Shown in pieces: positions 4,444 through 21,694 of a stretch of 64,000 nt of DNA. The DNA is from Promethearchaeota archaeon. Its GTDB lineage: Archaea > Asgardarchaeota > Lokiarchaeia > Sigyniarchaeales > SOKP01. The notes under the pieces are model-generated. The model had not been told where the DNA came from. It did no database searches and worked only from the letters and a program-made list of their open reading frames with translations. The stretch is from contig JBHLNF010000001.1 in assembly GCA_048937405.1 (NCBI GenBank), positions 128,001 through 192,000 of the forward strand, in the 5' to 3' direction. Each line of letters begins with the position of its first letter. The first letter of the stretch is position 1. Made by a program: the position numbers and the translations under genes.

Positions 4444-4456
4444 TTTTACTAATCAC

Positions 4457-5461: not shown

Positions 5462-5658
5462 TAATATCCTTAGTAAGTTGGTAAAGTTAAGTTTTATTGC
5501 TACAGTTTATTTTTTTTCTATTTAGAATAACTATTGAAATTTTAAGTAATAACAAAAGATACTATGGTTAGTTTTCTACATAAAAAATTTATTGAATCAA
5601 ATACTAAAATATTAAATCGTTTGTATAACCACTAATTTATGGAAAGTAGTAGGATTTT

Positions 5659-8448
5659 ATGGTTGATTATAACGCAGAAAAAATCGAGAAAAAATGGCAA
5701 CAAAAATGGGAAAAAGATAAAATTTTTGAAGTTCAAGTAGATTCAGGGAAAAAAAAATATTATGTTTTAGAGATGTATCCTTATCCGTCTGGAAAACTTC
5801 ATATGGGGCACCTGAGAAATTATACTATAGGAGATTGCTATGCTAGATTTAAAAGGATGAATGGTTTTAATGTTCTTTATCCCATGGGTTATGATTCGTT
5901 TGGTATGCCTGCAGAGAATGCAGCAATTGATCATGGTGCTAATCCTGAAGAATGGACTAACAAAAATATAAAGAAAATGAAAAATCAGCAAAAAAGAATC
6001 GGACTTTCATACGACTGGACACGGGAGGTATATAGTCATAATCCAAATTATTATAAATGGGATCAATGGTTTTTTTTAAAGATGCTAGAAAAGGGATTAG
6101 CGTATAAACAAGAAAGCTATGTTAATTGGTGTCCTAAATGTGCTACGGTTCTAGCAAATGAGCAAGCTCAAGGAGGAAAGTGCTGGAGATGTAATACAAT
6201 TGTTGACCAGAAGTTTTTAACGCAATGGTTTCTTAAGATAAGAGATTATGCAGATGAATTGCTCGAGGGTTTAAATCTTGTTGATTGGCCTGAAAAAGTT
6301 AAGATTATGCAACAGAATTGGATTGGAAGATCAGAGGGTACAATAATAAAATTCCCTATTGATGAAGAAAAAAGAACTATAGATATATTTACAACTAGAC
6401 CTGATACATTATATGGTGTAACCTTTATGGTTTTTGCTCCCGAACATCCTTGGGTTCGAGAATGGGTGATTGGAACGGAATATGAGAATAGTTTTAATAA
6501 ATTATATGATGAGGTAATGCATCAAGATAAATTTGAACGAACTGATATTGAAATAACAAAGAAAGGAATGTTTATTGGAAAATATGCGGTAAATCCAATT
6601 AACAGTGAAAAAATTCCTATTTTCATAGGTAATTTTGTAATTTATGAGTATGGAGCAGGTGCTGTCATGGCAGTTCCAGCACATGACCAGAGAGATTTTG
6701 AATTCGCTAAAGAATACGATGTTCCAATCAAGATTGTAATTCAACCACATGACTATGAATTAAATATTACCAAAATGACTCGTGCATATGAAAGCGATGG
6801 TATCCTAGTAAACTCAGGAGAATTCAATGGCATGGAGAATAGATCTGCTATTAATAAAATAACTGAAAAATTAAATGAACTTGATATGGGATATGCTACT
6901 ATAAATTACAAGTTAAGAGATTGGGGAATTTCACGTCAACGCTATTGGGGCTGTCCAATACCAATCGTATATTGTGATGAATGTGGAACGATCCCAGTCC
7001 CATATGAAGACTTGCCAGTATATTTACCAAATGATGTGATATTCACCGAAGCAGGTAATCCATTAAAATCAAGTGAAAGGTTTGTTAATACAAAATGTCC
7101 CAAATGTGGAAATGACGCAACACGTGAGACAGATACAATGGATACTTTTATTGATAGTTCTTGGTATTTCTTTGCCTATTGCGATCCCCCTTCTCTAGAA
7201 TCAGATATTCCTTATGCTAAAACTAAGGTAAATTATTGGGGTAATGTTGATCTCTATGTGGGAGGGATCGAGCATGCTATACTCCATTTGATCTACGCGA
7301 GATTCTTTACAAAAGTGGCTCGTGATTTAGGACTTCACAAATTTGATGAGCCCTTCCAGAAATTATTAACTCAGGGGATGATTAATAAAGCACACCCATA
7401 TTGCCCTAAATGTAATACTTTTCTTATGAAAGCTGATTTAGAAGAGATGAAATGTAGAAAATGTGGAAGTAATGATCTTATTCAAAAATCTGTTAAAATG
7501 AGTAAAAGTTATGGAAATACAGTAGATCCGGGGGAAATTATTGGAAAATATGGAGCAGATGCAGCAAGATTTTTTATATTATTTGGAGCAAGCCCTGAAT
7601 CAGGATTAGAATGGAATGATGAGGGGGTCAATTTTGCTAATAAATTTATAAGAAATTTCTTTCATTTGTTAGCTACTCCAATTCAAAATAAAAGAAATAA
7701 AAGAAGTATTAGTGATGATCTAATTATATATAATTTGTATAAGACCATTAAATTAGTTTCTGAATACATTAACAGAATTGCGATTCGAGACGCTCTTAAT
7801 TATATTATACAATTCGTCTCGGAGTTAACAAAGTATAAAGAGGAAGGAGTAATGGAAAAAATCTTTGAAGAATGTAGAGAAAAATTATTAATTCTTTCAC
7901 ATCCCTTTGTTCCGCACGTTACAGAAGAAATCTGGGAATTAATTGGAAAAGATAGATTTCTAAGTATAACTCTTTGGCCAACTTATAATAATGATCTCCT
8001 CAATGTTGAAAATGATTATAAATGGAATTTATTAAACAACACTATTGATGACATCAAAAGTATTAAATTAGCAACAAAAATCAATGATATAAAAAAAACT
8101 ATAATTATAACGGCCACTGATTGGAAATATAAATTTTATTCACAATTAATGATATTAATTGAAGAAACAAAGGATCAAGGAGAGATCATGAAAGAATTGA
8201 TGAAAAATGGCGATTTAAAAATTCACAGTAAATTTATCAGTCAAACAACTACTAAGATTCTCAAAAATATTGGAAAGTATTCCAAACACCATATTGATAT
8301 ATCTGATGAAAATCAATTTTTTAATGAAATAAAACCTCTGATCAAAAAAAGATTTAATTGTAATGTAGATGTTATAGTAGAAGTTAAGTCTGAACATAAA
8401 AAAGCATCTCAAGCATTACCAGGACGCCCTGCTATAGTTTTAGAATAA
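5659..8448 (+). CDS. leuS: leucine--tRNA ligase
   Basis: PYPSGKLHMGH (HIGH), FTTRPDT and GAGAVMAVPAHDQRD editing domain, KMSKS, C-terminal ALPGRPAI. Confidence 0.97.
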   Translation: MVDYNAEKIEKKWQQKWEKDKIFEVQVDSGKKKYYVLEMYPYPSGKLHMGHLRNYTIGDCYARFKRMNGFNVLYPMGYDSFGMPAENAAIDHGANPEEWTNKNIKKMKNQQKRIGLSYDWTREVYSHNPNYYKWDQWFFLKMLEKGLAYKQESYVNWCPKCATVLANEQAQGGKCWRCNTIVDQKFLTQWFLKIRDYADELLEGLNLVDWPEKVKIMQQNWIGRSEGTIIKFPIDEEKRTIDIFTTRPDTLYGVTFMVFAPEHPWVREWVIGTEYENSFNKLYDEVMHQDKFERTDIEITKKGMFIGKYAVNPINSEKIPIFIGNFVIYEYGAGAVMAVPAHDQRDFEFAKEYDVPIKIVIQPHDYELNITKMTRAYESDGILVNSGEFNGMENRSAINKITEKLNELDMGYATINYKLRDWGISRQRYWGCPIPIVYCDECGTIPVPYEDLPVYLPNDVIFTEAGNPLKSSERFVNTKCPKCGNDATRETDTMDTFIDSSWYFFAYCDPPSLESDIPYAKTKVNYWGNVDLYVGGIEHAILHLIYARFFTKVARDLGLHKFDEPFQKLLTQGMINKAHPYCPKCNTFLMKADLEEMKCRKCGSNDLIQKSVKMSKSYGNTVDPGEIIGKYGADAARFFILFGASPESGLEWNDEGVNFANKFIRNFFHLLATPIQNKRNKRSISDDLIIYNLYKTIKLVSEYINRIAIRDALNYIIQFVSELTKYKEEGVMEKIFEECREKLLILSHPFVPHVTEEIWELIGKDRFLSITLWPTYNNDLLNVENDYKWNLLNNTIDDIKSIKLATKINDIKKTIIITATDWKYKFYSQLMILIEETKDQGEIMKELMKNGDLKIHSKFISQTTTKILKNIGKYSKHHIDISDENQFFNEIKPLIKKRFNCNVDVIVEVKSEHKKASQALPGRPAIVLE

Positions 8449-8499
8449 TTATAGGATTTTTAAATTTTTTTTCTTTTGCCTGCTAATTTATATTCATTA

Positions 8500-9078
8500 T
8501 TATTTATTTACGTATTCGATGTTAATTATAAGACTATAATCCTTACTTTGATTAAGATTTATTTTTGAAACCTTTCCATACCCTATTTGAAGTTTAAATG
8601 AACTTTTTAAGGGAATTTTTAATAAATAAGATAAGATTGAGCGGATTACTCCCGAATGAGTAATGATGCCCACTTTTTTATGACCTTTTTCGATTATATC
8701 TTCAAAAAATCTACAAGATCTCCTATATAGATCAAGAAACGATTCACCATTAGGACATGGTTTGTTTATAAAATCCTTTGTCCATTCTTGAAATTTAACT
8801 CTATTTATTAAATTCCATTTTTTTAACTCCCATTCACCAAAATCCATTTCAAGTAGGCGTTTATCTATTATTGGTGTTGTAGTGGATAATTTTTCTGAAA
8901 GCAAAGTACATCTTTTCAATGGACTTGAGTAAAAAACCATCTGAGGAGAAAAGGGCAATTTTTTTTTAAGTTCTTTAAGTTCATGTTCAAAAGAATCTGC
9001 AATATCTACATCAGATTGACCGTAACACACATCATTATCCAATTTTACATTAGTATGTCGAATAAGATATATATCCAT
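8500..9078 (-). CDS. cobC: alpha-ribazole-5'-phosphate phosphatase (histidine phosphatase, bacterial CobC type)
   Basis: LIRHT, CYGQSD, SSPLKRC, EMDFGEWE, GES, THSGVIR; last gene of the cob run. Confidence 0.85.
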   Translation of the reverse strand: MDIYLIRHTNVKLDNDVCYGQSDVDIADSFEHELKELKKKLPFSPQMVFYSSPLKRCTLLSEKLSTTTPIIDKRLLEMDFGEWELKKWNLINRVKFQEWTKDFINKPCPNGESFLDLYRRSCRFFEDIIEKGHKKVGIITHSGVIRSILSYLLKIPLKSSFKLQIGYGKVSKINLNQSKDYSLIINIEYVNK

Positions 9079-9127
9079 ACTTTAATCAATATAAGAAAAA
9101 TTTTTTTTGTTATATGTATTTATATTA

Positions 9128-9769
9128 TCACTTAATTCTATTGTTAAATTTTTTCAATTGATAAAAATCATCGATTGTGTTAATATTGAACAATAACTCT
9201 TCCTGTTCGCTAATAAAAATTGCTTGGTCAAGTTCTGGTTGTCCTATTAAGCGACCATCTATTATATTAATTCCTAGTGGTACTAAATTATTCTGTTTAT
9301 CATCAGATTGGAAAATTATTGTTGGTTTTAATCCATATTGACTAAATAATTTAATCTCTGCCATAACAGAAAGTGCTGGTCTACTTAATATAAAATATTT
9401 ATTGATAATCTCGTCGAGAATCTTAGGTTTAATTAACGGGATATCGGCTGCGATCGTTATGACAACCTCAAGATTTAATTTTTTTATTACAAATAATAAA
9501 TCTGAGTGGTAATTAATACCAGGAGTTTCTATCAATATAATTGACATTTTTTTTTTCTCGAGGACAGATTTCGTCTGTGGAGTGAATGGAGAGAGTGCAA
9601 TAATTACTTTATTGATATTTTTCGCGTTTAATGTCGCCTCAATGGCATATTCAATCATAAATCTATTATTAAATTGAAGTAATAATTTTTCTTGATATTT
9701 AGACTTAACTTTATCAAAATTAAACCGTTCACCTTTACCTCCTGCCATAATTATCGCTGGTATTTGCAT
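9128..9769 (-). CDS. cobY: adenosylcobinamide-phosphate guanylyltransferase (archaeal type)
   Basis: IMAGGKGERF NTP-transferase start, ETPG..Y..DL, ADIP, NINT..D; next to cobS. Confidence 0.85.
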   Translation of the reverse strand: MQIPAIIMAGGKGERFNFDKVKSKYQEKLLLQFNNRFMIEYAIEATLNAKNINKVIIALSPFTPQTKSVLEKKKMSIILIETPGINYHSDLLFVIKKLNLEVVITIAADIPLIKPKILDEIINKYFILSRPALSVMAEIKLFSQYGLKPTIIFQSDDKQNNLVPLGINIIDGRLIGQPELDQAIFISEQEELLFNINTIDDFYQLKKFNNRIK

Positions 9770-9797
9770 AATTTAGTCTCAAAATAAAATAAATACT

Positions 9798-10649
9798 TTA
9801 AATAAATCTCAAAGAATGGAATATCAACAATAATATTAATATGAATAGTCTCGTAATCTCATTTAAAGCTCCAAGACAATCACCAGTAAGACCACCGAAA
9901 TTTTGATAAGATAAAATTAATACAATAATTAAAGACAGAAGAGTCCCTATGACGAAAATTGTAAAGATTAAAATAGATTGGAGTAAATTCCAAGGCGAAA
10001 TCCCGTTTATTGGAATAAATGTAAACTTAAAAATAAGTATATCATGATATAATAAAATATAATAGGTTCTAATTAATAAAGTGAAATATATTAAAATAAT
10101 CGATAAAATTAATGAGAGAAACATATGTTTTTTCATATTTTTTTGGATAAATAGATCAGCCATCCTAGTTTTAGCAGATTTTCCAATAGAACAGGCAACT
10201 ACCATATTGAATTTAGCACCAATTTCACTCAACATTAAAGATATTAGAATAATATTCATTGAGTAAGAGATGGTTATTCCAGTTAGTATTAATATTATAA
10301 AACCTAGTGTAAAACCTCCTGCCCCTATAGTTGACTCGTGCATTACTTCTTTCTTCCGCTCAGGAGGACCTGATGCCATTAAACCATCTCCAAAATCAAT
10401 TAAACCATCAGTATGATGAATACCTGTCATTAATAGTAGTAATCCTAGGACAATGAACCCCACTATTAAAGACGGAAGAATACTGAATAAAATTAGACTT
10501 ATAATGCTAGATATTAATCCAAGTACGAATCCTACAAAAGGGAATAACCAAATATATGGTGCGATATCTTCTTGAATATCAACTTTTCCTCTAATAGGAA
10601 ATCTAGTTAAAAAAGAAAAGCAATTTTTAATTTTGTTTAGAATTCTCAA
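9798..10649 (-). CDS. cobS: adenosylcobinamide-GDP ribazoletransferase (cobalamin synthase)
   Basis: FLTRFP, TGIHHTDGLIDFGDG, FGGLTGDCLGA; multi-TM; GGAGGT upstream of the TTG start. Confidence 0.93.
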   Translation of the reverse strand: MRILNKIKNCFSFLTRFPIRGKVDIQEDIAPYIWLFPFVGFVLGLISSIISLILFSILPSLIVGFIVLGLLLLMTGIHHTDGLIDFGDGLMASGPPERKKEVMHESTIGAGGFTLGFIILILTGITISYSMNIILISLMLSEIGAKFNMVVACSIGKSAKTRMADLFIQKNMKKHMFLSLILSIILIYFTLLIRTYYILLYHDILIFKFTFIPINGISPWNLLQSILIFTIFVIGTLLSLIIVLILSYQNFGGLTGDCLGALNEITRLFILILLLIFHSLRFI

Positions 10650-10655
10650 TTCTCA

Positions 10656-10838
10656 TTACCTCCTTGCTCCTAATACTCTCTTAAGTGCATCAGTATCACA
10701 TTGAACTATAGAAGATCGTACTTTTTTTGCTTGTTTTATATTACCATAATTAGAAATAATGCTAATGTCGTTCTCGCTAAAAAAGTCATTCAAATTTGGG
10801 ATATAACTATTATACCATTTTACATTCATGATAACCAC
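10656..10838 (-). CDS. small ORF between cbiB and cobS (possible gene relic)
   Basis: Exactly fills the cbiB-cobS gap on the operon strand; no recognisable motif. Confidence 0.35.
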   Translation of the reverse strand: MVIMNVKWYNSYIPNLNDFFSENDISIISNYGNIKQAKKVRSSIVQCDTDALKRVLGARR

Positions 10839-10841
10839 AAT

Positions 10842-11921
10842 TTAAAATGTAAAAATCAAAAACATTATTAAAATAATAATTATAGAAAGAATTACTATAA
10901 ATAATAGAGCTGCTAATCGAACAATTCTAAAAGTTGTTCTAATATCTTCTGGTCTAAGCGTTTTATTGGAAATTCCTAACTTATAAGATCCTATTTTCTC
11001 AAGTTGAACATTTAATAATCCTGCCATAGTACCCATTGTCCATCCTCCATTAACGCTTTCTGTATGATTTTTATCTGATTTTAAAATCTTCCATGCATTT
11101 TTCACATCTTTTTTCAAAATTTTGCCGGCTAATAATAATAGTAATACAGTAAGACGTGTGGGGAAAAAATTGGAAAGATCATCCATTCTTGCTGAAAACC
11201 ATCCAATATCTATATTTTCAGAATCTTTATATCCCACAATACTATCAGCAGTATTGATAATGCGGAAAATATAAGCGGAGGGTATTCCTAAGAACAACCA
11301 GAAAACATGATGGTGAATATAAGTAAAAAAACTTGCTCCTAATAAATTTCCAATTAGAAAAAACCAAAATACACTGGTAACTGCATCAGTAGAACTTTCA
11401 GCTATAACTTCAACAGCAGCCGAAATTATATGAGAATTATCAAGTGTTTCAGTATCTCGGCGAACTATAAAAGATAGCTCTTTTTTTGCTTTTTCTATAT
11501 CACCATGTTTTAGATGCTCTCCAATAGGAATTGTGGTATCTCCTAAATTTTTGATTGCAAATGACCATTTTAAAATAAAGCCAAAAATGAATGAAATAAG
11601 GAGAATATCGAGGAAATTAATATTATTTAAACTAGAAGAATCCCAAATTTTCCATATCCACCAAATAAAGACCTGAACAAGAAATAGTGGTATGCAAAAT
11701 ATTAAAAAAGCAAATACTAATAGAAAAACCCCAAAAATTTTATCCAAAATTCTTTTATCACATTTCAATCTTAGTTTTAACCAGTTAATTACATTACCGA
11801 TTATATTTACAGGATGATATTTTAAGTGGGGATCTCCAATTATAAAATCGATAATAACAGAGAAAAATATTGTCAAAATAACTAAAAGAATGAAATAAGA
11901 TGGAAAAAGCGCGATATCCAA
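10842..11921 (-). CDS. cbiB: adenosylcobinamide-phosphate synthase CbiB
   Basis: GDP...HPV, IVRRDT, AESSTD, RIINTADSIVGYK, GWFSARMDD, NGGWTMGTMAGLL. Confidence 0.93.
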   Translation of the reverse strand: MDIALFPSYFILLVILTIFFSVIIDFIIGDPHLKYHPVNIIGNVINWLKLRLKCDKRILDKIFGVFLLVFAFLIFCIPLFLVQVFIWWIWKIWDSSSLNNINFLDILLISFIFGFILKWSFAIKNLGDTTIPIGEHLKHGDIEKAKKELSFIVRRDTETLDNSHIISAAVEVIAESSTDAVTSVFWFFLIGNLLGASFFTYIHHHVFWLFLGIPSAYIFRIINTADSIVGYKDSENIDIGWFSARMDDLSNFFPTRLTVLLLLLAGKILKKDVKNAWKILKSDKNHTESVNGGWTMGTMAGLLNVQLEKIGSYKLGISNKTLRPEDIRTTFRIVRLAALLFIVILSIIIILIMFLIFTF

Positions 11922-11930
11922 TTATGACAC

Positions 11931-13448
11931 CTATATATTTACTAATTTTTTAATTTCTTGAAGATTTATACTTTTTAATACAGTATTAGCATACTTCTGT
12001 ATGTTCTCCTCTACTATACTTTTGTAAATTGTCTTTTTTTTTTTTCTCTTGACCCCTTTTCTCCTATATATATGTTTAATGAATCTTTCCCTAAAATCAT
12101 CATTATCCCATAATCCATGAATATAACAACCAAAAACATTTTTATTTTTATTAATTGCTCCAATAAAACTGTTAACGGATTTTACATCAGAGTTTATTAT
12201 TCTTAACAAGGGCATTGCTCCAGCTTCATATTTAGTTTTTCCCATATGTATTTCATATCCATTAATTTTTTGACTATTGAGGAAAGGTAACCCAATAAAC
12301 TCTGCTAGTATTTGTTTTGTTATCTTATTATAATCTAAAAATTCAGTTTGAATAGGTAATAATCCTAATCCTTCAAATTCTCCAATAGAGTCACTTTCAA
12401 TCTTATTGTCTATTACTTTTCTTCCTAATATTTGATACCCTCCACACACACCAATTATTAAAGTTCCAACTTGGTTTAATTGTTTTAATTTGTCAGAAAA
12501 GCCACTCTCTTTCATCCATTTCAAGCTTTCTACTGTATTTTTAGTTCCTGGTATAATAATAACATCAGAATTATCCAGTTGCTCTGGAAGAGAAACATAG
12601 GATATATGGATATCTTCCTCCCAATTTAATACTTCAAAGTCAGTAAAATTAGAAATTTTTGGTAAATTAATAACCTTAATATCTAAGAATCCACCGCCTT
12701 CACTTTTTTCCATAGAAAGTGAATCTTCAGCAGGTATTTTTAAATTAGATAAATAGGGTATTACACCACTACACTTAAGACCTAATAATTTTTCTAAGTC
12801 TTCTATTCCTGACTTTAAAAGAGTTATATCTCCACGGAATTTATTGATAACAAACATTTTTATTAGATTTTGTTCCTCCATACTAAGCAATTTGATTGTT
12901 CCATAAATTGATGCAAAAACTCCACCTCGATCAATATCGGCAATTAATATCACAGGGGCATCAGCTAACTTTGCAACAAACATATTTGCTATTTCCTTAT
13001 CCATTAAGTTTATTTCAGCGGGGCTACCAGCCCCCTCAATTATAACAATATCATAATTTTCTCTAAGATAATTGAGAGCGCTTTTTATATAAGGTTTAAA
13101 TTTTGGAACATATTTGGTGTAATATTCTTTTACCTTTGTATCTGCATAAGGTTTTCCCATAAGTATTATTTGAGAAGTTGCATCTCCTTTAGGTTTTAAT
13201 AAAATAGGATTGAACTCTGCAATAACTTCTGACCTAGAAGCTAAAGCTTGCACAACTTGAGAACGAGCAACTTCTTTTCCATCTTTAGTGACGAACGAGT
13301 TTAAGGACATATTTTGTGCTTTAAAGGGTGCAACTTTATACCCCATATCACTAAAAATTCTACATAAAGCAGTGACTAACATTGATTTACCTGCATGAGA
13401 AGTTGTTCCCTGGATCATTAAAACTTTCCCGAGCATTCCTACAACCAT
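11931..13448 (-). CDS. cbiP: cobyric acid synthase
   Basis: QGTTSHAGKS, PFKAQNMSLNS, EGAGSPAEINL, DIDRGG, GVCGGYQILG, GYEIH, YIHG. Confidence 0.96.
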   Translation of the reverse strand: MVVGMLGKVLMIQGTTSHAGKSMLVTALCRIFSDMGYKVAPFKAQNMSLNSFVTKDGKEVARSQVVQALASRSEVIAEFNPILLKPKGDATSQIILMGKPYADTKVKEYYTKYVPKFKPYIKSALNYLRENYDIVIIEGAGSPAEINLMDKEIANMFVAKLADAPVILIADIDRGGVFASIYGTIKLLSMEEQNLIKMFVINKFRGDITLLKSGIEDLEKLLGLKCSGVIPYLSNLKIPAEDSLSMEKSEGGGFLDIKVINLPKISNFTDFEVLNWEEDIHISYVSLPEQLDNSDVIIIPGTKNTVESLKWMKESGFSDKLKQLNQVGTLIIGVCGGYQILGRKVIDNKIESDSIGEFEGLGLLPIQTEFLDYNKITKQILAEFIGLPFLNSQKINGYEIHMGKTKYEAGAMPLLRIINSDVKSVNSFIGAINKNKNVFGCYIHGLWDNDDFRERFIKHIYRRKGVKRKKKKTIYKSIVEENIQKYANTVLKSINLQEIKKLVNI

Positions 13449-13808
13449 CTATTTTTTAATATTTTCCAATATTTTAGAACGTAATTTTAATAATTCTTCT
13501 CTTGAAATTTCTTCAAATTTTTTTTTATAACTTATCAAACCTTCAAGGATTAATTCTGAATTTTTCATTTTATGTATAAAAAGACAATTAGAACATGCCC
13601 AAATAGGTTTTTGTGTATTAGAGTTTATCTTTTCAAATCCTCTAGTATCAATTTCATTACAAGGATAAAAAGGGCAATAGCAGAATGTACAATCTTCTAA
13701 TCCATCATGACATGGTAAATAATCACATGATTTATCAAGACCAGTTAAACTTTTTCTTTTTATTGCTCTATTTATCAAAATCTTACCTTTTTCCAGCATC
13801 TCAGTCAT
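13449..13808 (-). CDS. cysteine-rich small domain protein (cob-cluster associated)
   Basis: CDYLPCH...CTFCYCPFYPC...WACSNCLFIH. Confidence 0.8.
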   Translation of the reverse strand: MTEMLEKGKILINRAIKRKSLTGLDKSCDYLPCHDGLEDCTFCYCPFYPCNEIDTRGFEKINSNTQKPIWACSNCLFIHKMKNSELILEGLISYKKKFEEISREELLKLRSKILENIKK

Positions 13809-13828
13809 CTCTTTAACTATTTACTTGA

Positions 13829-14950
13829 TTATATTATAGATTTTAAAGTTTGAATTAATTTTATATTAGACTCTCGATCTTTTACTGAAATCCTTATATA
13901 ATAATTATCCAAATATTTAAAATTAGAACAATCTCTTATTAGAATATTCTTTTCTAATAAAATCTTCTTTAATTCATGAGATCTAATTCCAGTATTTTCA
14001 ATATTGATTAATATAAAGTTAGTGCGAGTAGTGAATAATTTTAGTTTTGGTATTCTACTTAATTCGGAAATTAGAAAATTTCTTTCTTTATTAACAAAAG
14101 AAATCGAACTTTTTATAAAATTATTATAATATAACATTTTTTCGGCAAATTTTTGACCAATACAATTAACTGACCATAAATTTTGAGCTTTCTTCATATG
14201 TTTTATTAAAACTAAATCCCCTACCCCAAATCCTATTCGAAGTCCTGGAATTCCAAAAAATTTCGTAAAACTGCGACTAACAAAGAGATTTTTATATTTA
14301 TTAATCTTATTAATAAATGAATTTTCTTCACCTGTGAATTCAATAAAAGCTTCATCAAGAAAGACCAAGATATTTCTATCTAATGAAAATTTTATTATCT
14401 CTTCAATATCATTAAAATTTTCCAAATTCCCATTTGGATTGTTAGGATTACAAATAAATATAGCTTTTGTTTGGGGATCAATTCTTGACATAATTGGATG
14501 TTTCTCAAGCTTGAAATTATTCTGAAGATCCCTGGGGATATTGATTATATCTCCAAGATTTTTTCGAATAGCCCACTCATATTCAGAAAAGGTAGGTTGA
14601 GAAATTATTATATTATCATTGGGCTCAATAAATATATCACAAAAATTAGTAATTAATTCCATGGAACCAGCTCCAATAATAATATTTTCTAATTTAATTC
14701 TATTACTAAAGTAACTTACTAATCTTTCTTTTAGTATTAAAGATTCTGAATCAGGATATTTTTGGATTTCTGATAAACTTTCCTTAAACCATTCAGAATA
14801 CTTATTAGAAGCATTTAATGGATTAATATTTATACTAAAGTCTATTATTTCAGATTTACCTTTAAATATTTTTTTCTTATATATTTCACCTCCATGTCTT
14901 TTATGGATTAAATCTTTCTTTTTTTTGTTTATAATTTTATCAAAATCCAT
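13829..14950 (-). CDS. cobD: L-threonine-O-3-phosphate decarboxylase (PLP, HisC-like)
   Basis: HGG, DFSININPL, CNPNNPNG, DEAFIEF, RSFTKFFGIPGLRIG, IRDCSNF; cob context. Confidence 0.88.
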   Translation of the reverse strand: MDFDKIINKKKKDLIHKRHGGEIYKKKIFKGKSEIIDFSININPLNASNKYSEWFKESLSEIQKYPDSESLILKERLVSYFSNRIKLENIIIGAGSMELITNFCDIFIEPNDNIIISQPTFSEYEWAIRKNLGDIINIPRDLQNNFKLEKHPIMSRIDPQTKAIFICNPNNPNGNLENFNDIEEIIKFSLDRNILVFLDEAFIEFTGEENSFINKINKYKNLFVSRSFTKFFGIPGLRIGFGVGDLVLIKHMKKAQNLWSVNCIGQKFAEKMLYYNNFIKSSISFVNKERNFLISELSRIPKLKLFTTRTNFILINIENTGIRSHELKKILLEKNILIRDCSNFKYLDNYYIRISVKDRESNIKLIQTLKSII

Positions 14951-14965
14951 TATAATTAATCCTTT

Positions 14966-16210
14966 TTATTCTGATATTTTCTGAAAAAGCGTTTCTAAAT
15001 TATTTACAACCATAACATTACTTTTATTAATTAAATTTAGGTAAACATTTGTTGCTAACCCTCCAGTAAAATCTCGATTTTCAATTGGTTCTAATTCATA
15101 AATAATAATTTTTTTTTCGCATTCATTTAGAATATGTAAATTCTCTATATTATTATAACCAAAAGGCATATTTCCCAGAATTATAAGATCTACGTTTTCT
15201 AATACTTTCCTTAATTTATTCTTAGATTCTTCAGAAATTGGAGAGAATGGTGCTTCTGAAATAATCCTATAATTTAGTTCATTTGCTAATGAAAAATCAT
15301 CATCTAAAACATTCAAAATACCAATACTAACTATATTATTTTTTAATTTTGGTAGAATTTCTAATGCAGATCCACCTCCAGCTATTACATGAATCCTTTT
15401 TCCTTCTTTTAATTTACATTTTCTTGAAATATGAGATCTATCTTTTAATGGAGTAATATAAATAGAATTTGTGAATAAATTTTTTCGAATTGCAATTTCT
15501 ATATTATACACAGATAGAATATTTTCCTTTGTTATTGTTTCTTCAATTGATCCAAAAGCTTCAATATGCCCAGCATTTAATAGAATGATCTTATCACAAA
15601 ATAAAGTTGCTAAATTTAAATCATGCAGAACGATTATAACGATTAGTCCATCCTTGACGTAATTTTTTAACATTTCCATTAATTCAATTTTATAGTTAAG
15701 ATCTAACTGCGATGTTGGCTCATCTAATAAAAGAACTTCACTTTCTTGAGCAATTGCCCTACTAATAATAACTTTTTGTTGTTCTCCACCACTCAATTCA
15801 TTAAATCCTCTGTGTTGTATTTCAGTTAAATTAAATTTATTTAAAATTTGATCAACAACATTAATATCCTTTATAGATTCTCTTGAAAAGCGTCCTACAT
15901 GTGAATATCTTCCCATTTTAATAATTTCTCTTACTGAAAAATCAAAATTAATTGATGTTGATTGAGGAACTATTGCTATTTTTTTCGCTATTTCACGTAT
16001 CATTAATTTGTTAATATTATCTTCATCAATTAAGACTTTTCCATAATTAGTTTTTAAGATCCCACTAAGAATTTTTAAAAAAGTAGATTTTCCACACCCA
16101 TTTGGGCCTATTATTCCATAAAGATAACCCTTTTCAAACTGCATAGATATATTGTTTAAAACTTCTTTTGTCCCATATTGAAAACTAATATTTTCACATT
16201 TAATAGTCAT
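14966..16210 (-). CDS. btuD: corrinoid ABC transporter ATPase with C-terminal extension
   Basis: GPNGCGKS, LSGGEQQ, LLDEPT, LHDLN; extra ~150-aa C-terminal domain starting HVIAGGGS. Confidence 0.85.
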   Translation of the reverse strand: MTIKCENISFQYGTKEVLNNISMQFEKGYLYGIIGPNGCGKSTFLKILSGILKTNYGKVLIDEDNINKLMIREIAKKIAIVPQSTSINFDFSVREIIKMGRYSHVGRFSRESIKDINVVDQILNKFNLTEIQHRGFNELSGGEQQKVIISRAIAQESEVLLLDEPTSQLDLNYKIELMEMLKNYVKDGLIVIIVLHDLNLATLFCDKIILLNAGHIEAFGSIEETITKENILSVYNIEIAIRKNLFTNSIYITPLKDRSHISRKCKLKEGKRIHVIAGGGSALEILPKLKNNIVSIGILNVLDDDFSLANELNYRIISEAPFSPISEESKNKLRKVLENVDLIILGNMPFGYNNIENLHILNECEKKIIIYELEPIENRDFTGGLATNVYLNLINKSNVMVVNNLETLFQKISE

Positions 16211-17241
16211 TACCCTAATTCACCTTTTCTTTTTTTTTTAACAATTAAATAGAGAAAAAATGGTCCACCCATCAACGCAGTGAATATTCCAACGGGTATT
16301 TCGAGAGGTGCTATCAATGTTCGAGCGAAAATGTCTGCCCATAATAATAATAATCCTCCAATTAATGCACTATAGGGAATTAATTTTTGGTTATTACTTC
16401 CAATTAGTAATCTTATAGTATGGGGAACAATTAATCCAATAAAGCCAATACTACCACAAAATGCCACAGCTGTGGAAGTTAATAATGTCATTAAAAATAA
16501 AATTATTTTTTTTGATTGCTCAACATTAACACCCATTGACTGCGCCGTTTCATCTCCAAATACCATTAAATTTAAATCACGACCATAAAAAAACAATATT
16601 ATTGTGCTTGGAACCATAACAAGTAACACGATATAAAATTCAATCCAAGTTATGCCCCATAAACTTCCCATTAAATAAATAAGAATTGTATGAGCTTTAT
16701 CTTCGGAAAAAAATAAGATAAAACTGGTAAGGGCAGAAAAAAAGAAAGATATGGCAATCCCCGCTAATAAAAGAACAGTTGTTGATATTCTATATGTTGT
16801 TTTAGATAATTCATATACAATGGAAATTGATAATATAGCAAATAGAAACGCAACAAGTGGAATTGTTAATAAACTAAAAAAGCCAAGCACAAGTACTACC
16901 ATTAGGGCGGTCCCAAATCCTGCTGCTGCTGAAACACCAATAATATAAGGATCAGCAAGAGGATTCTTTAATATTCCCTGAGCGGCTACTCCCGCAACTC
17001 CTAGCATTGCACCAATAACAACAGCCATTAATACTCTTGGCATTCGTATAGTTAAAATGATAGTTTCTTCTCCCGCATCATAAGTTCTTGGAATATTAAA
17101 TCCAATTTTATTCATTATAATAATCCATACTTTAGGAAATTCGATTTCGACAGAGCCAATTGAAATTGCAAATATTACACTAAAAAATAAGAAAATTGAA
17201 AGAAAAAGAGGTAAAAAAATATTAATAGCTTTTTTTTTCAT
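16210..17241 (-). CDS. btuC: corrinoid ABC transporter permease (FecCD family)
   Basis: RMPR, KNPLADPYIIGVS, GSIGFIGLIVPH, EIPVG, GGPFF. Confidence 0.88.
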   Translation of the reverse strand: MKKKAINIFLPLFLSIFLFFSVIFAISIGSVEIEFPKVWIIIMNKIGFNIPRTYDAGEETIILTIRMPRVLMAVVIGAMLGVAGVAAQGILKNPLADPYIIGVSAAAGFGTALMVVLVLGFFSLLTIPLVAFLFAILSISIVYELSKTTYRISTTVLLLAGIAISFFFSALTSFILFFSEDKAHTILIYLMGSLWGITWIEFYIVLLVMVPSTIILFFYGRDLNLMVFGDETAQSMGVNVEQSKKIILFLMTLLTSTAVAFCGSIGFIGLIVPHTIRLLIGSNNQKLIPYSALIGGLLLLWADIFARTLIAPLEIPVGIFTALMGGPFFLYLIVKKKRKGELG

Positions 17242-17283
17242 ATTCTTTTAAATTAAAGATTTGGTTCTTTTTTTAGATTATTT

Positions 17284-18237
17284 TTAATCCAATATCCCTG
17301 GATATAGAGCTAATGTCATGTTAATTAACGCATCAATTATTCGAGGTCCTGCTCTTGTGAACTTGTCATCATCGCATATATATATTCGATTATTTATTAC
17401 TGCATTAACAACATCATAACCACTTCTTTCAGCAATGTTGCTTTCATAATAATCTCTTCCCATTGCAGTAATAAAAATTACTTCAGGATTATTGCTTATA
17501 ACCGATTCATGACTCACTATTGGATATTCCTCTTGTATATCACCAAAGATGTTTATACCCCCAGCTTTTTTAATCATATCATCAATGAAAGATTTAGCCC
17601 CCGCTACTTTTGGAGTTTCCCATACCTCAAAATAACAGGTTAACTTGTCACTATTATTTATTTGTGATGTTTCAGCTGTAATTAAATTCATTCTAGCTTT
17701 CAAGGAATCCAAAAAGTCTTTACTCTTCTCTTTTTCATCGATTAGCCACCCAATATCCTCAATATTCTTAAAAATATCACTGATTGAATTCGCTATGAGA
17801 ATAACAACCGTGATATTATAATAATCTAATTGATCAATTATATCTGGATCATCCCTTGCTCCTATGACTAAATCGGGCTCTAAACTTACTATAATTTCAA
17901 TATTTGGAGTAGAAAAACCTCCTATACTTGTTTTATTTTTTGTCTCCTCTGGATAATTGCAGTAGCTGGTAACAGCAACTAATTTATCTTCTGCTTCAAC
18001 AGCATATAATATTTCTGTTATGGCAGGGGCCATAGATATAATTTTTTCAGGATATTCTGGAACTTCTACCTCTCTACCTAGTGAATCCTCAAATAATCTT
18101 ATTTCATTTCCTTCTGGATTACAAATATCTCCAACAATAATATTAACTATGATTAAACTTGATATGAGTAATACTATTGTCAAACTGAGTAATACAATTT
18201 TAAATATACCTTTCATTTTTTTTCTCTTTATTTTCAT
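17284..18237 (-). CDS. btuF: corrinoid ABC transporter substrate-binding protein
   Basis: N-terminal TM anchor, DSLGREV, ISMAPAITEILYA, CNYPEE, LEPDLV, RAGPRI. Confidence 0.85.
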   Translation of the reverse strand: MKIKRKKMKGIFKIVLLSLTIVLLISSLIIVNIIVGDICNPEGNEIRLFEDSLGREVEVPEYPEKIISMAPAITEILYAVEAEDKLVAVTSYCNYPEETKNKTSIGGFSTPNIEIIVSLEPDLVIGARDDPDIIDQLDYYNITVVILIANSISDIFKNIEDIGWLIDEKEKSKDFLDSLKARMNLITAETSQINNSDKLTCYFEVWETPKVAGAKSFIDDMIKKAGGINIFGDIQEEYPIVSHESVISNNPEVIFITAMGRDYYESNIAERSGYDVVNAVINNRIYICDDDKFTRAGPRIIDALINMTLALYPGILD

Positions 18238-18245
18238 TAAGAATT

Positions 18246-18911
18246 TTAAGAATACTCAAGAATATTCAAATACCAATAATTATCTCTTAAAATTGAGTTA
18301 TGTTGTTTAATATTTATTTTCTCTTTGAATAAGGGACAATCAGTTACAAATGTATGAAATTCACCTAACTCCCCACATGTATTAATTTGATTATCTTTAA
18401 GATATTCAAAATAACTTTTATCTAAAAATTGACCAAGCCATTTTTTATTAATTAAATTTGCTTTTAAGCTAACAATAATTGCTTTAAATCCCACTTCAAT
18501 TAACTCAAGGTAAATGTCATCGGCTGAGTATCCCCAAAGCGGTTCAACAGCTTGGACTCCTAATTCTCCACATACATTTTCTGCCCATTTCTTATGTTTT
18601 TGAATTTCAAACTCTTCTAAATAAATATCTCCAAAAATTATCCCCTTTAAACTATTTTTAATTAATGGCTTAATAATTCTTTTGAACTCTTGTGTATAAT
18701 TATTCCAACTGATTTCTTGTTGTATAAGTGGTATATGCATAGATTTTGCTTGTAATTGTATTAGTTCAGTATTTATATTATGGGTATCAATCTTCTTAGA
18801 TTCTTTAGAAACTAAATTTATTAGATGAGATATATTATATCCTTCACTAATTGCCTTGAAACATGCAAAGCAGCAATCTTTTCCACCGCTCCAAGAAACT
18901 AAATAGCTCAT
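18246..18911 (-). CDS. PP-loop ATPase of the DUF71/diphthine-ammonia ligase family (likely B12-salvage subgroup)
   Basis: SWSGGKDC, FGDI, EPLW, CGELGEFHTFVTDCPLF; first gene of the btu/cob run. Confidence 0.8.
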   Translation of the reverse strand: MSYLVSWSGGKDCCFACFKAISEGYNISHLINLVSKESKKIDTHNINTELIQLQAKSMHIPLIQQEISWNNYTQEFKRIIKPLIKNSLKGIIFGDIYLEEFEIQKHKKWAENVCGELGVQAVEPLWGYSADDIYLELIEVGFKAIIVSLKANLINKKWLGQFLDKSYFEYLKDNQINTCGELGEFHTFVTDCPLFKEKINIKQHNSILRDNYWYLNILEYS

Positions 18912-18936
18912 TTTTATATTTTTATTTTGAATTAAT

Positions 18937-18958
18937 TTATAGGAAATTTATCCTATAA
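18937..18958. promoter_or_regulatory. palindromic operator-like site 1 (TTATAGG-aaatttat-CCTATAA)
   Basis: Perfect 7-bp arms with 8-bp spacer, 26-47 bp upstream of the 18911 start codon. Confidence 0.65.
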
Positions 18959-18997
18959 AAAATTATTTAATAAAGTAATGTACTAATGTTTTTAAAG

Positions 18998-19019
18998 TTA
19001 TAGGTTAAGTTTCCTATAA
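18998..19019. promoter_or_regulatory. palindromic operator-like site 2 (TTATAGG-ttaagttt-CCTATAA)
   Basis: Same arms and spacing as site 1; 20/22 identical to the reverse complement of site 1. Confidence 0.65.
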
Positions 19020-19183
19020 TTTTTAAATAAAATTTAATTAATTCATTTAACGACATTTGAATGTCGTTTTGTTCGAATGATTTAAAATATCTAAAAATAA
19101 GGAGATTTCTCAATAAATGAGAATACATCTTCAATAGCAATTTAAAAAATTTAAAAGAAACTCTGTTAAAATAGCGAATATTA

Positions 19184-20278
19184 ATGAAAGAAATTATAAG
19201 AATAGGTAAAAAGGAAAAAATTGAAGATTTTATATCAAAAATAGAAGGAAAAAAACCTCTGTTTATATGTGTTATAGGAAATACTGAAACTGCAAAAATT
19301 CCTAGCATCTCTGCAGCGGGTGCTAATCCAGATATTACAGATTATACACCAGCTGCTGATATGGAATACTTAATATATGAGAAATGCAAATCAATTGAAG
19401 GTGTTCCAATTACACCTGATGGAATACCAACTCCTGCCTTGATTACTAAAGCTTCAATAGATTTAGCAGAAATATCCTTATTAGTTGCATCTGGTGGACT
19501 AAATATACATCCTCAAACACCATTTTTAGAATTTGGAGGGCAACCAGGAAAAAATATTTCAAATGGACTTGCTTTAAATAAAGTTTCAAGTGTATTTGAA
19601 AGAGCTAAAATATTAGGAGAGCAAATATCAAAAGCAGTAGATTATCTTGTAATTGGAGAAAGTGTTGCAGGAGGAACTACGACTGCTTTAGGAGTTTTAA
19701 CAGCCATGGGATTTGATGCATCAAATAAAATTAGCAGTAGTTTACCCAAGAATCCAATTGGTTTAAAGATTAAAACTGTAAAATTGGGACTTAAGAACGC
19801 TGGTATAGTTGCTGGAGATTTAAAAAATGAACCCTTAAAAGCGATTAAATTATTAGGAGATCCTATGCAACCTGTACATGCAGGTATAGTTATAGGGGCT
19901 GCAGAAAGAATCCCTGTATTATTAGCAGGGGGGACTCAAATGAGTGCTGTTTTAGCAATAGTAAATTCCATTAATCCATTGATAAGTAAAAATTTAGCTA
20001 TAGGGACAACTAGATGGATAATTGAAGATAAACAAGCTGATTTGAAGGGGCTTATCGATCAAATTAATCCAGATATTCCAATCTTAGGCGCAAACCTTAA
20101 CTTTAATCAAATGAAATATGATGGTTTAAAGGCATATGAACAGGGAGTAGTTAAAGAAGGCGTTGGTGCTGGAGGGTCTGTCATTGCTAGTATATTATCA
20201 ACTAAAGGTATGATATCAATTGATCAAATTCATCAAAAAATTAAAGATAACTATAGGAGAATAGTTTTAAATGAATAA
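19184..20278 (+). CDS. cobT: nicotinate-nucleotide:lower-ligand base phosphoribosyltransferase, archaeal CobT type
   Basis: GNTETAKIPSISAAG, YTPAAD, PTPALIT, GESVAGGTTTA, GDPMQ, LAGGTQM, VKEGVGAGG. Confidence 0.9.
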   Translation: MKEIIRIGKKEKIEDFISKIEGKKPLFICVIGNTETAKIPSISAAGANPDITDYTPAADMEYLIYEKCKSIEGVPITPDGIPTPALITKASIDLAEISLLVASGGLNIHPQTPFLEFGGQPGKNISNGLALNKVSSVFERAKILGEQISKAVDYLVIGESVAGGTTTALGVLTAMGFDASNKISSSLPKNPIGLKIKTVKLGLKNAGIVAGDLKNEPLKAIKLLGDPMQPVHAGIVIGAAERIPVLLAGGTQMSAVLAIVNSINPLISKNLAIGTTRWIIEDKQADLKGLIDQINPDIPILGANLNFNQMKYDGLKAYEQGVVKEGVGAGGSVIASILSTKGMISIDQIHQKIKDNYRRIVLNE

Positions 20279-20660
20279 AAATACAATGAAAAAAGAATCT
20301 TTACAAAAAATATTCATAATAATAGCAGATCGGTGGAAATTGAATTTTTATTCAAAATTTATGAGTATTTTAGATGAAACAAAGAATCAGGGAGAAATAA
20401 TGAAGAGACTTATGATAGAGAGTGAGTTTAAAAAACATAGTAAAATCATAAACCAAAGTGTCAATAAGATTCTTAAAAATGTGGGAAAGTACCCAAAATT
20501 GACTCTTACTACGAATGAAGAATTTCATTCTTTTGATGAAATAAAACCAGTTTTAGAGAAAAAATTCAATTCTAAAGTAGAGATTATGTATGAACAAGAC
20601 TCAAAGGAACAAAAAGCAGCCAACGCGCTTCCTGGTAAACCTGCAATCGTTATTTTTTAA
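20271..20660 (+). CDS. stand-alone paralog of the LeuRS C-terminal domain
   Basis: Gapless alignment to the last 124 aa of LeuS with 59 identities by hand count; ATG overlaps the end of cobT. Confidence 0.8.
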   Translation: MNKNTMKKESLQKIFIIIADRWKLNFYSKFMSILDETKNQGEIMKRLMIESEFKKHSKIINQSVNKILKNVGKYPKLTLTTNEEFHSFDEIKPVLEKKFNSKVEIMYEQDSKEQKAANALPGKPAIVIF

Positions 20661-20824
20661 ATATTTTTATTGATATATCAAAATTATTTCATTTAATGAG
20701 CTAAAATTCTACATGGTTTTATTAACTTAAGATTAATTTAAATATTATAAATTTAAATATGTTAAAAGTTGTTAGAAAAGCATTGAATCAATTAAAATAT
20801 TCAAGAATAGTATTTTCAAAATAG

Positions 20825-21694
20825 ATGACTATCTACGAACTTAGTATTATTACAACAACAGGATTTCCTTATTTCAATACCATAATTAAACCTATACCAG
20901 AAGGGGTAAAAGTCTTTCTTAGATTTTTTGATTTTTCTAGAAATATATCACTAGTTCAAGATGAATTAGATTTGAATTCAAAATTTGATCTTACTGCTGG
21001 TTTAATCTCAGCTCTTTTTGAATTTGCTCGAAATATTGATAAGAAAATAGATATTCTTGAATTCAGACCTAAAAAACTAAAAGATATAGCAAAGAATGTA
21101 AATATTAATAACAAATATCAAGGAGACGTGCTAATTACAGCACAAACAGAATCTTTCTTATTACATAGATCAGTAAGAGAAAAAATTAAATTAATTTATA
21201 CTAACTATATTTATTCTAAAATTCCTCTTGATTCGGCTGATTACATTCAAGAAAATGAAGAAAAAAAAATTATAGAGATTCTAAGAGATTCAAAATCTAG
21301 ACAAAAAGTCTTAAAATCTCAGAATGATTTAAAAAGAACTGCTAGTGCTTTTTTGAATGAAATGAAAGATTATGGTCTATGGGGCATTTGTATAACAACT
21401 TTTGATCTCTCACCGATAATTAATTTTGGAAAGAAATTCACATTGGAGAATGTGAATGATATTTTGAGACATATTGGTTATATCCCCGAGATTGTGCCTT
21501 TGGAATGGATTTATAGGCAATCTTTTTTTTCAAATGAACAAATTCAGGTATGTATTATCAAATCAAATATAGGACCTACCATTGAAAACAGTTTATTTGA
21601 ACCTTATTTCTATTTGCTTTTAGCAGATCCTCAAAGTTATATGGGTGAGTTTCCTGAAAAATTAAATTCTGCTTTTAGTATGATTCTGGGATAA
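20825..21694 (+). CDS. hypothetical protein with a longin-like N-terminus and possible roadblock-like C-terminus
   Basis: IYELSIITTTGFPYF...LTAGLISALFEFARNI resembles longin strand/helix pattern; C-term GICITTFDLSPI. Confidence 0.5.
   Translation: MTIYELSIITTTGFPYFNTIIKPIPEGVKVFLRFFDFSRNISLVQDELDLNSKFDLTAGLISALFEFARNIDKKIDILEFRPKKLKDIAKNVNINNKYQGDVLITAQTESFLLHRSVREKIKLIYTNYIYSKIPLDSADYIQENEEKKIIEILRDSKSRQKVLKSQNDLKRTASAFLNEMKDYGLWGICITTFDLSPIINFGKKFTLENVNDILRHIGYIPEIVPLEWIYRQSFFSNEQIQVCIIKSNIGPTIENSLFEPYFYLLLADPQSYMGEFPEKLNSAFSMILG

Follow-up and report, generated by a model that had tools for sequence, protein, structure and literature searches.

We analysed a stretch of 64,000 nucleotides (the window) from a Promethearchaeota archaeon of the Lokiarchaeia, whose 4.47-Mb genome (G000) holds the window on a 1.05-Mb contig. 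The window carries leuS, a gene for leucyl-tRNA synthetase (LeuRS), and an 11.8-kb cluster of cob and btu genes for corrinoid (B12) salvage and uptake separates it from a 129-codon open reading frame (ORF) that resembles the 3′ end of leuS. Thirteen ORFs lie between the two leuS ends, including one that is probably a spurious antisense ORF. In a BLASTP comparison, residues 810-928 of LeuRS align without gaps to residues 10-128 of the ORF (58/119 identical, 71% positives, E 1e-36), and the two copies are ~60-65% identical in DNA within G000. The ATG of the ORF (20271) overlaps the stop codon of cobT (20276-20278) by 8 nucleotides (nt). A preliminary description of the window had noted that the cluster is bracketed by the leuS end and a second copy in the same orientation, that the two align without gaps and that the ATG overlaps cobT, and all of this is confirmed. 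Its hand count of 59/124 identical residues is replaced by the BLASTP figure. The duplicated end is real, but the foreign stretch is not the last 124 codons of leuS; it covers approximately the last 285-400 codons.

Below, type A denotes the native LeuRS 3′ end and type B the imported 3′ segment; g20825 is the gene that starts at window position 20825, and G001 is the nearest relative tested. The features of leuS, its second 3′ end and the junctions are:

5659-8448, + strand: leuS, 929 amino acids
5659..7245, + strand: host-derived 5′ part of leuS, codons 1 to ~529; 82-98% amino acid and ~88% nt identity to G001
7246..8448, + strand: imported type B 3′ segment of leuS, from ~codon 530; identity to G001 38-60% in amino acids, ~60% in nt
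8449..8503, - strand: left junction, an endonuclease vestige (last ~14 codons of a Hint+LAGLIDADG gene) and a short spacer
20270..20285, + strand: right junction, which forms the ATG at 20271 and the first five codons (MNKNT) of the second ORF
20271-20660, + strand: second ORF (the remnant), 129 amino acids, same orientation as leuS
20286..20660, + strand: type A leuS 3′ end, native and displaced, codons ~806-929 and stop; a complete archaeal/eukaryal-type LeuRS C-terminal domain (CTD)
20661..21694, + strand: native spacer and g20825, the conserved downstream neighbor of leuS across the genus

The core of the window's LeuRS is of bacterial type (TIGR00396 leuS_bact, 959 bits, residues 4-783) and its tail is of archaeal type from ~residue 611. 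A canonical archaeal LeuRS is encoded elsewhere in the genome, on contig C22 (L075 1366-4254, - strand, 962 amino acids, TIGR00395 914 bits), and both kinds of LeuRS give matches in nearly all 54 genomes of the genus. The window's leuS is a second LeuRS paralogue of G000. Such paralogy may account for the gene tolerating the traffic described below.

The two 3′ ends of leuS

The 129-amino acid ORF was used as a query against 40 related genomes. It is 81-82% identical to the LeuRS end of G001, 52-71% identical to the LeuRS ends of other members of the genus and just 48% identical to the resident LeuRS end of its own genome; in DNA it is ~15% diverged from its nearest orthologue. It matches the archaeal LeuRS models NF008957 (positions 822-945) and TIGR00395 (leuS_arch, positions 819-937). 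The surroundings of the ORF are those of a leuS end. At 21 loci of same-genus genomes (19 plus two further genomes) leuS directly precedes g20825, at a spacing of ~165 bp and with no cob cluster there, and the order lplA, a radical-SAM gene, leuS, g20825, tpiA, a ferredoxin gene and a thioredoxin-like gene is conserved in the 19. Nucleotide homology to G001 (84%) starts at ~20275, exactly at the cobT stop, and spans the ORF and the spacer into g20825. In a CTD tree built on the last 124 residues of LeuRS ends, types A and B separate at 100/99 support. The remnant groups with the leuS of G001 and a remnant in G050 within type A (support 100/93), and the resident end falls in type B. The ranking of G001 as closest match, the synteny, the nt homology and the tree together show that the downstream copy is the original leuS tail, still in place, and the tail now attached to leuS a foreign one.

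The foreign segment is considerably longer than the duplicated domain. Against G001, LeuRS keeps 82-98% identity to ~residue 640, followed by 38-60% to the end; relatives compared with each other keep 60-90% identity over the stretch beyond ~residue 640. The drop in amino acid identity is sharp, from ~codon 645 (near window 7591). The switch in DNA comes earlier than the drop in the protein; according to the reference used, breakpoint scans give codons 526-528 or codons 646-654. G050 and G001 are nearly identical through codon 529 and diverge abruptly after it, and the signature GAT CTC TAT GTG, from codon 530, is common to all type B carriers. The resident leuS is thus a hybrid gene, composed of a native 5′ part and a foreign 3′ part joined in frame.

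Type B ends 75-88% identical to that of G000 are found in G053, G050, G041 and several metagenome contigs. For every pair of type B carriers the synonymous divergence (dS) of the 3′ segment is below that of the 5′ part, with a range of 0.14-0.65 for the 3′ segment vs. 0.2-2.25 (about 2.3) for the 5′ part. For example, dS of the 3′ segment and 5′ part is 0.245 and 0.87 for G000/G053, 0.56 and 1.89 for G000/P0006, and 0.40 and 2.25 for P0006/P0009. Pairs of type A genes have no dS deficit of the 3′ segment. Because its dS falls below that of the 5′ part among carriers, the type B segment can be said to move horizontally within the genus.

The locus in related genomes

The same layout, i.e., a type B leuS, an insert and a type A remnant beside g20825, is found in G053, G041, and G050. 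In G053 the insert is 3.9 kb and encodes a subtilase-propeller protein, and a 22-codon type A remnant precedes g20825. G041 has a 4.75-kb insert with a gene for a 1221-amino acid protein, and its remnant comprises codons ~543-929 with one frameshift. In G050 the type B leuS is at the end of a contig, and the remnant that adjoins g20825 is 67 codons long and has no start codon. A tree of the right-flank genes groups G041, G000 with G053, and G001 with G050 (99% support); the layout is present in four of these five genomes, and G001 has an intact type A leuS. Since these relatives combine the replacement end with other cargo, it is not tied to the B12 cluster. The space between the new tail and the old one acts as a slot for variable cargo, and the locus is a recurrent hotspot carrying an island scar.

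A contig from Loki's Castle (Ga0073583_1194037; L048) has four to five partial leuS copies at 4190-21045, which comprise residues 232-896, 336-929, 341-438, 541-928 and an inverted 176-216. The pieces are interleaved with genes for an OLD/GajA/AriA-like ATPase, a Schlafen/AlbA_2 protein and an HD/dGTPase-like protein, and the whole looks like a stacked defence island. Full-length remnants begin at codon 541-543 both in G041/L054 and in this contig. The right-junction codons differ between loci (806, 863, 908, 893). The two leuS copies of G041 are 84% identical where the remnant begins, with no long identical core, and we found no common "element end" sequence upstream of the remnants across different loci. 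The large cargo proteins at L031 (a locus of G004b; 7161-9083, - strand, 640 amino acids) and L064 (a locus of G041; 9151-12816, - strand, 1221 amino acids) have no Pfam, PADLOC or PHROGs match. A scan of viral contigs for a free leuS 3′ fragment gave just one unrelated match of 34%.

An isolated leuS 3′ fragment occurs on contig C59 of G047 (L065 1877-2434, - strand; a 185-amino acid ORF, residues 739-928) and belongs to a sister clade of type B. It adjoins an ArsR-type regulator, far from the intact leuS of that genome. The possibility that this fragment sits on a recognisable element was rejected, its surroundings being ordinary chromosomal genes.

An endonuclease gene accompanies some of the leuS ends. 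L031 and L054 each have an intact ORF with Hint and LAGLIDADG domains beside a leuS end, on the strand opposite leuS; the two are 67% identical over 714 amino acids, and that of L054 is at 14843-17107 (- strand). The stop codon of the L031 endonuclease is ~15 bp from that of a leuS 3′ remnant, and an internal leuS fragment lies ~140 bp from the end of the L054 ORF. Downstream of the type B leuS stop, G053 (at ~18 bp) and P0006 have decayed pieces of the endonuclease gene that contain stop codons. G000 and G053 are 94% identical over 115 nt spanning the leuS stop, including 55 bp after it, and are unrelated past ~8503. Read on the reverse strand, 8449-8503 of the window gives NNNEYKLAGKRKKI*, which matches the tail of the G053 endonuclease remnant, CNNEYKLICKRKKNLKILK. 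The left junction of the cob/btu cluster, at ~8503 at the cobC stop, lies inside this vestige, and the right junction is at 20270-20276, at the cobT stop.

Paralogues 33-41% identical to the leuS-linked endonuclease adjoin the 3′ end of nrdD in two other genomes of the genus, and LAGLIDADG_3 and Intein_splicing score above the Pfam cut-offs in an endonuclease paralogue. The paralogue loci are L087 6517-8643 (+ strand; G012), L088 7632-10298 (- strand; G043) and L089 6929-8851 (- strand). They lie at the 3′ end of nrdD (anaerobic ribonucleotide reductase) or near nadC, directly after a gene for a 926-amino acid AAA-type protein. These ORFs may form a wider family of endonucleases at the ends of housekeeping genes.

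Origin of the arrangement

Very probably, the remnant is the cell's own former leuS 3′ end, a displaced scar in a hybrid LeuRS gene. In substance this is what the preliminary description had proposed as one of two explanations, namely an island that supplied a new leuS 3′ end and displaced the old one. Two of its checks, synteny (leuS directly followed by g20825 at the 21 loci without a cob cluster) and a CTD tree (the downstream copy native and the resident end foreign), both came out in its favor. A new 3′ end was indeed supplied; it is, however, ~400 codons long, from ~codon 530, and does not belong to the B12 cluster in particular.

As to what the original invader was, we put the chances at about even that it resembled the mORF cassettes of mitochondria, combining a replacement leuS 3′ part with a convergent, intein-derived Hint+LAGLIDADG homing endonuclease gene. 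Cleavage of the native allele by the endonuclease, near codon 541, would be followed by repair from an allele that bears the cassette, and the recipient's own codons 541-929 would stay behind as the remnant. An endonuclease of this kind would account for the shared start of the remnants, their native-looking sequence, the spread of type B and the lack of an integrase. In the lineage of G000 the cob/btu cluster would then have taken the place of the endonuclease gene, of other cargo and of codons 541-805 of the remnant. We regard this later replacement of the original cargo as probable because G000 keeps the 55-bp endonuclease vestige.

Several observations weigh against this account. G000 has no endonuclease gene other than the vestige, and the link to an endonuclease rests on relatives. 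Full remnants start ~11 codons downstream of the beginning of the type B tract, an offset that needs co-conversion or resection. The second class of fragment boundaries in the Loki's Castle contig, at codons 336-341, is not accounted for by the endonuclease. The remnant is an intact ORF for a complete, confidently folding domain with a ratio of non-synonymous to synonymous divergence (dN/dS) of 0.13. Finally, a one-step join at codon 806 from an unsampled donor could have given the same arrangement. In this one-step alternative, homology-facilitated illegitimate recombination brought in a donor leuS of type B together with the cob cluster, by homologous exchange within leuS and an illegitimate join at codon 806, with no endonuclease, and the hotspot is merely a conserved gene bordering a variable region. 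This model has also been put forward for Rhs and type VI secretion system (T6SS) arrays (PMC5361080). It agrees with the absence of an integrase, with the varying right-junction positions listed above and with a possible 9-nt microhomology at the right junction, AATAAAAAT (20273-20281). The 55 bp that G000 shares with G053 after the leuS stop are, however, an endonuclease tail and point to an earlier cassette, and full-length remnants start at codon 541-543 in independent loci. In no sampled genome does a cob cluster adjoin leuS: six cob loci were examined in a search for a donor and none has leuS nearby, and the contexts of the closest type B LeuRS genes (P0005-P0011) contain no cob cluster. 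We consider a one-step origin unlikely, though it is the strongest of the competing explanations.

Site-specific integration into the 3′ part of leuS by an integrase since lost would leave a rebuilt target ORF and a displaced 3′ pseudogene, as in icd/icdC (PMC13626634). Archaeal elements are known to target the 3′-distal parts of protein genes (PMC6563490), and the recurring remnant start would also fit. We found no integrase in the cob island or related inserts, in at least eight loci examined with Pfam, PHROGs and PADLOC, nor a tyrosine recombinase gene on the 1.05-Mb contig; the only two PF00589 genes of G000 are on other contigs (C9 and C28). A short identical att core at both ends was not found when the copies were compared in G000 and in G041, where identity at the first overlap is no more than the 84% given above. 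Moreover, the type B tract begins upstream of the remnant start, and the replaced part of ~1.2 kb is far longer than known att overlaps. Integrase-mediated insertion therefore seems very improbable, and integration like that at tRNA sites, the likeness drawn in the preliminary description, is not the model that fits best. Tandem duplication of the leuS 3′ end in place, followed by divergence, or a chimeric assembly has nothing in its favor other than the presence of two copies, and we give it practically no credence. The copies belong to different well-supported clades, each closer to genes of other genomes than to the other copy, and on this placement in the CTD tree in-place duplication was rejected. 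An assembly chimera is excluded for the right junction because the junction is reproduced in two other assemblies: L073 has the same cobT/ORF/g20825 junction (99.98% identical over 20,390 nt), as does L074, an automatic assembly of a public run (100% identical). The layout also recurs in other species.

Whether the remnant is now a gene in its own right is a separate question. The other explanation in the preliminary description was a selected, free LeuRS CTD, tRNA-binding or regulatory, that is tied to corrinoid salvage. Such a domain would bind tRNA-Leu or have a regulatory role and be translationally coupled to cobT. The intact ORF, whose ATG overlaps the cobT stop, agrees with this, and cobT and the remnant probably share a transcript. 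Codon 806, where the native gene was cut, is near a domain boundary (Anticodon_1 ends at 813). The predicted structure of the remnant has a pLDDT of 91.5, and its only significant PDB matches are 1WZ2_A (Pyrococcus LeuRS with tRNA, TMq 0.67) and human LRS 6LPF (TMq 0.60); it aligns with residues 854-966 of 1WZ2, so that the model would correspond to a tRNA-binding domain. The dN/dS of 0.13 is against G001, and on the remnant's own branch the ratio is ~0.2-0.3. However, the ATG and the first five codons were made by the junction, and residues 1-7, which derive from it, are disordered in the model. Homologous cob clusters at four other Asgard loci, with the same gene order, have no such gene. 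Remnants in sister lineages are 22 and 67 codons long without a start, or frameshifted, and the short CTD-like proteins in public databases span 75-226 amino acids, several being broken gene calls.

The substitution pattern can be read without selection. The dS of the remnants tracks that of neighboring g20825, and remnants compared with each other have a dN/dS of 0.22-0.27, like functional tails. In a relative-rate test, synonymous changes are as lopsided as amino acid changes, which indicates a longer G000 branch and not relaxation. If the remnants were neutral, their stop-free state would need t<0.147 substitutions per site in G000 and t<0.044 in G041; the species divergences are 0.6-1.0. 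Given a single old displacement, the dN/dS values would mean selection, which is implausible in view of the startless 67-codon and the frameshifted remnants. The simpler reading is that each displacement was recent and independent, and a low dN/dS fits a scar because the displacement is recent. The preliminary description had also found it telling that the copy is stop-free despite ~50% divergence, but this premise is wrong, since the copies are different alleles brought together and not duplicates made in place. The dN/dS of 0.13 is not near 1, but a recent displacement would also give such a value. Most likely the remnant is a pseudogene of recent origin and not a gene under selection, and a role as a free, selected domain is a distant prospect.

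Two further candidates for island remnants, P0244 and P0255, were rejected as pieces of fragmented leuS gene calls. In two public assemblies, L071 and L072 (GCA_964481225.1 and GCA_019058095.1), gene calling splits the leuS of this locus into several short ORFs or misses it, and assembly frameshifts are the likely cause. Fragmented leuS calls of this kind inflate the counts of "stand-alone" LeuRS domains in protein databases.

The cob/btu cluster between the two leuS ends consists of the following genes:

8500..9078, - strand: cobC, alpha-ribazole phosphatase; TIGR03162 166.6 bits (cut-off 162.9), His_Phos_1
9128..9769, - strand: cobY-like adenosylcobinamide-phosphate guanylyltransferase; NTP_transf_3, NF045495 103 bits (below cut-off)
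9798..10649, - strand: cobS, cobalamin-5′-phosphate synthase; PF02654, E 2.4e-40
10842..11921, - strand: cbiB/cobD, adenosylcobinamide-phosphate synthase; PF03186, E 1e-72
11931..13448, - strand: cobQ/cbiP, cobyric acid synthase; GATase_3 and CbiA
13449..13808, - strand: Cys-rich zf-like small protein that travels with cobQ; PF04071, same position in other Asgard cob clusters
13829..14950, - strand: cobD-type class I/II aminotransferase-fold enzyme; PF00155, E 1.7e-48
14966..18237, - strand: btuD, btuC and btuF, corrinoid ABC uptake; ABC_tran, FecCD, Peripla_BP_2
18246..18911, - strand: Dph6-like ATP pyrophosphatase, the first gene of the operon; PF01902 E 8.6e-50, TIGR03679 138.9 bits (below the cut-off of 197.3)
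19184..20278, + strand: cobT, archaeal-type NaMN:base phosphoribosyltransferase; TIGR00303 379.8 bits (cut-off 240), full length vs. homologues

The genes cobT, cobS, cobC, cobY, cbiB, cobD, cobQ, and btuFCD are all present and intact by Pfam and NCBIfam, and the cluster is single-copy in G000. It is Asgard-like overall, with best matches at 60-70% identity, and its cob gene order is common to other Asgard clusters. The best public relatives of cobQ are 60-67% identical, and those with a taxon label are all Asgard. The trait is rare in the genus: cobQ was found in two of the 53 other genus genomes surveyed, and corrinoid salvage together with uptake in 3 of the 54 searched. The Dph6-like gene between btuF and cobT was not seen in the other Asgard cob clusters compared. 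The ~190-bp gap between cobS and cbiB (10650-10841) is where L061 and other Asgard clusters hold cbiZ; G000 has no cbiZ, and a sister assembly calls just a 57-amino acid ORF in this gap. A 113-amino acid ORF at 18967-19308 (- strand) runs antisense to the beginning of cobT. In other cob loci the stretch over which it appears conserved is cobT coding sequence, and it is probably not a gene.

Comparison with known systems

We found no report in the literature of leuS as an insertion site in Asgard archaea. The locus helps to explain how an Asgard archaeon gained corrinoid salvage and uptake, and it shows that part of an aminoacyl-tRNA synthetase gene can act as mobile DNA. In this LeuRS paralogue the history of the last third is more recent than, and different from, that of the rest, which matters for Asgard phylogenies that use such genes. 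The remnant also serves as a warning that an intact and well-folding duplicate domain can be young debris and should not readily be called a new gene.

The arrangement resembles those of prophage e14 and phage 21 in the icd gene of Escherichia coli (PMC13626634), where an element sits in the 3′ part of a housekeeping gene, provides a replacement end and leaves a 3′ pseudogene (icdC) on its far side; loss of e14 can rebuild icd from the remnant (PMC13626634). e14, however, has an integrase, a short att core and a short, near-identical replacement end. The replacement end of leuS is ~1.2 kb and ~50% diverged at the tail, and neither an integrase nor a core was found. Elements integrated in Thaumarchaeota (PMC6563490) are similar in being archaeal, in occupying the 3′ part of a translation-related or other housekeeping gene and in rebuilding its ORF, but they encode integrases or casposases, and the att sites or target duplications are short, at ~13 bp or a comparable length. 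The Rhs, CdiA, and T6SS effector loci (PMC5361080) share with leuS a constant 5′ part, a swapped 3′ part and recombination without an integrase, as well as strings of orphaned 3′ fragments downstream, as in the four to five leuS pieces of the Loki's Castle contig. Those loci encode polymorphic toxins under diversifying selection, with cognate immunity genes, whereas leuS is an aminoacyl-tRNA synthetase paralogue and its cargo is unrelated to the gene.

The closest likeness in layout is to the mORF hybrids of fungal mitochondria, known from atp6 of Allomyces macrogynus and from atp6, atp9, cox2, and nad3 of Glomus (PMC3630166). This hybrid-gene pattern seems so far to have been described mainly in fungal mitochondria. 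As in leuS, the gene has acquired a foreign C-terminal part in frame, and its own C*-terminus persists downstream. Of the two tails it is the native one that lies closer to relatives (64-81% for mORF; 48% vs. 81% for leuS), and the distribution among close relatives is patchy. Between the two tails of the mORF hybrids lies an endonuclease gene; at the related leuS loci such a gene is intact in L031 and L054 and decayed in G053 and P0006. The leuS case differs in being chromosomal and archaeal, and its endonuclease is intein-derived, with Hint and LAGLIDADG domains, and lies on the opposite strand. In G000 the endonuclease is a 14-codon vestige, the replaced part is ~400 codons, and the cargo is large (the 12-kb B12 cluster, or defence-type genes in relatives). 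We find an endonuclease-driven mechanism the most interesting lead from these sequence comparisons. More tentatively, and with somewhat less than even confidence, we suggest that Lokiarchaeia may carry free Hint+LAGLIDADG homing endonucleases that invade housekeeping genes together with a cleavage-immune 3′ third, and that their decayed scars may capture metabolic and defence islands. If the link to the endonuclease is true, a mechanism of fungal mitochondria would extend to archaeal chromosomes and would mark a predictable hotspot for accessory and defence genes in the closest prokaryotic relatives of eukaryotes.

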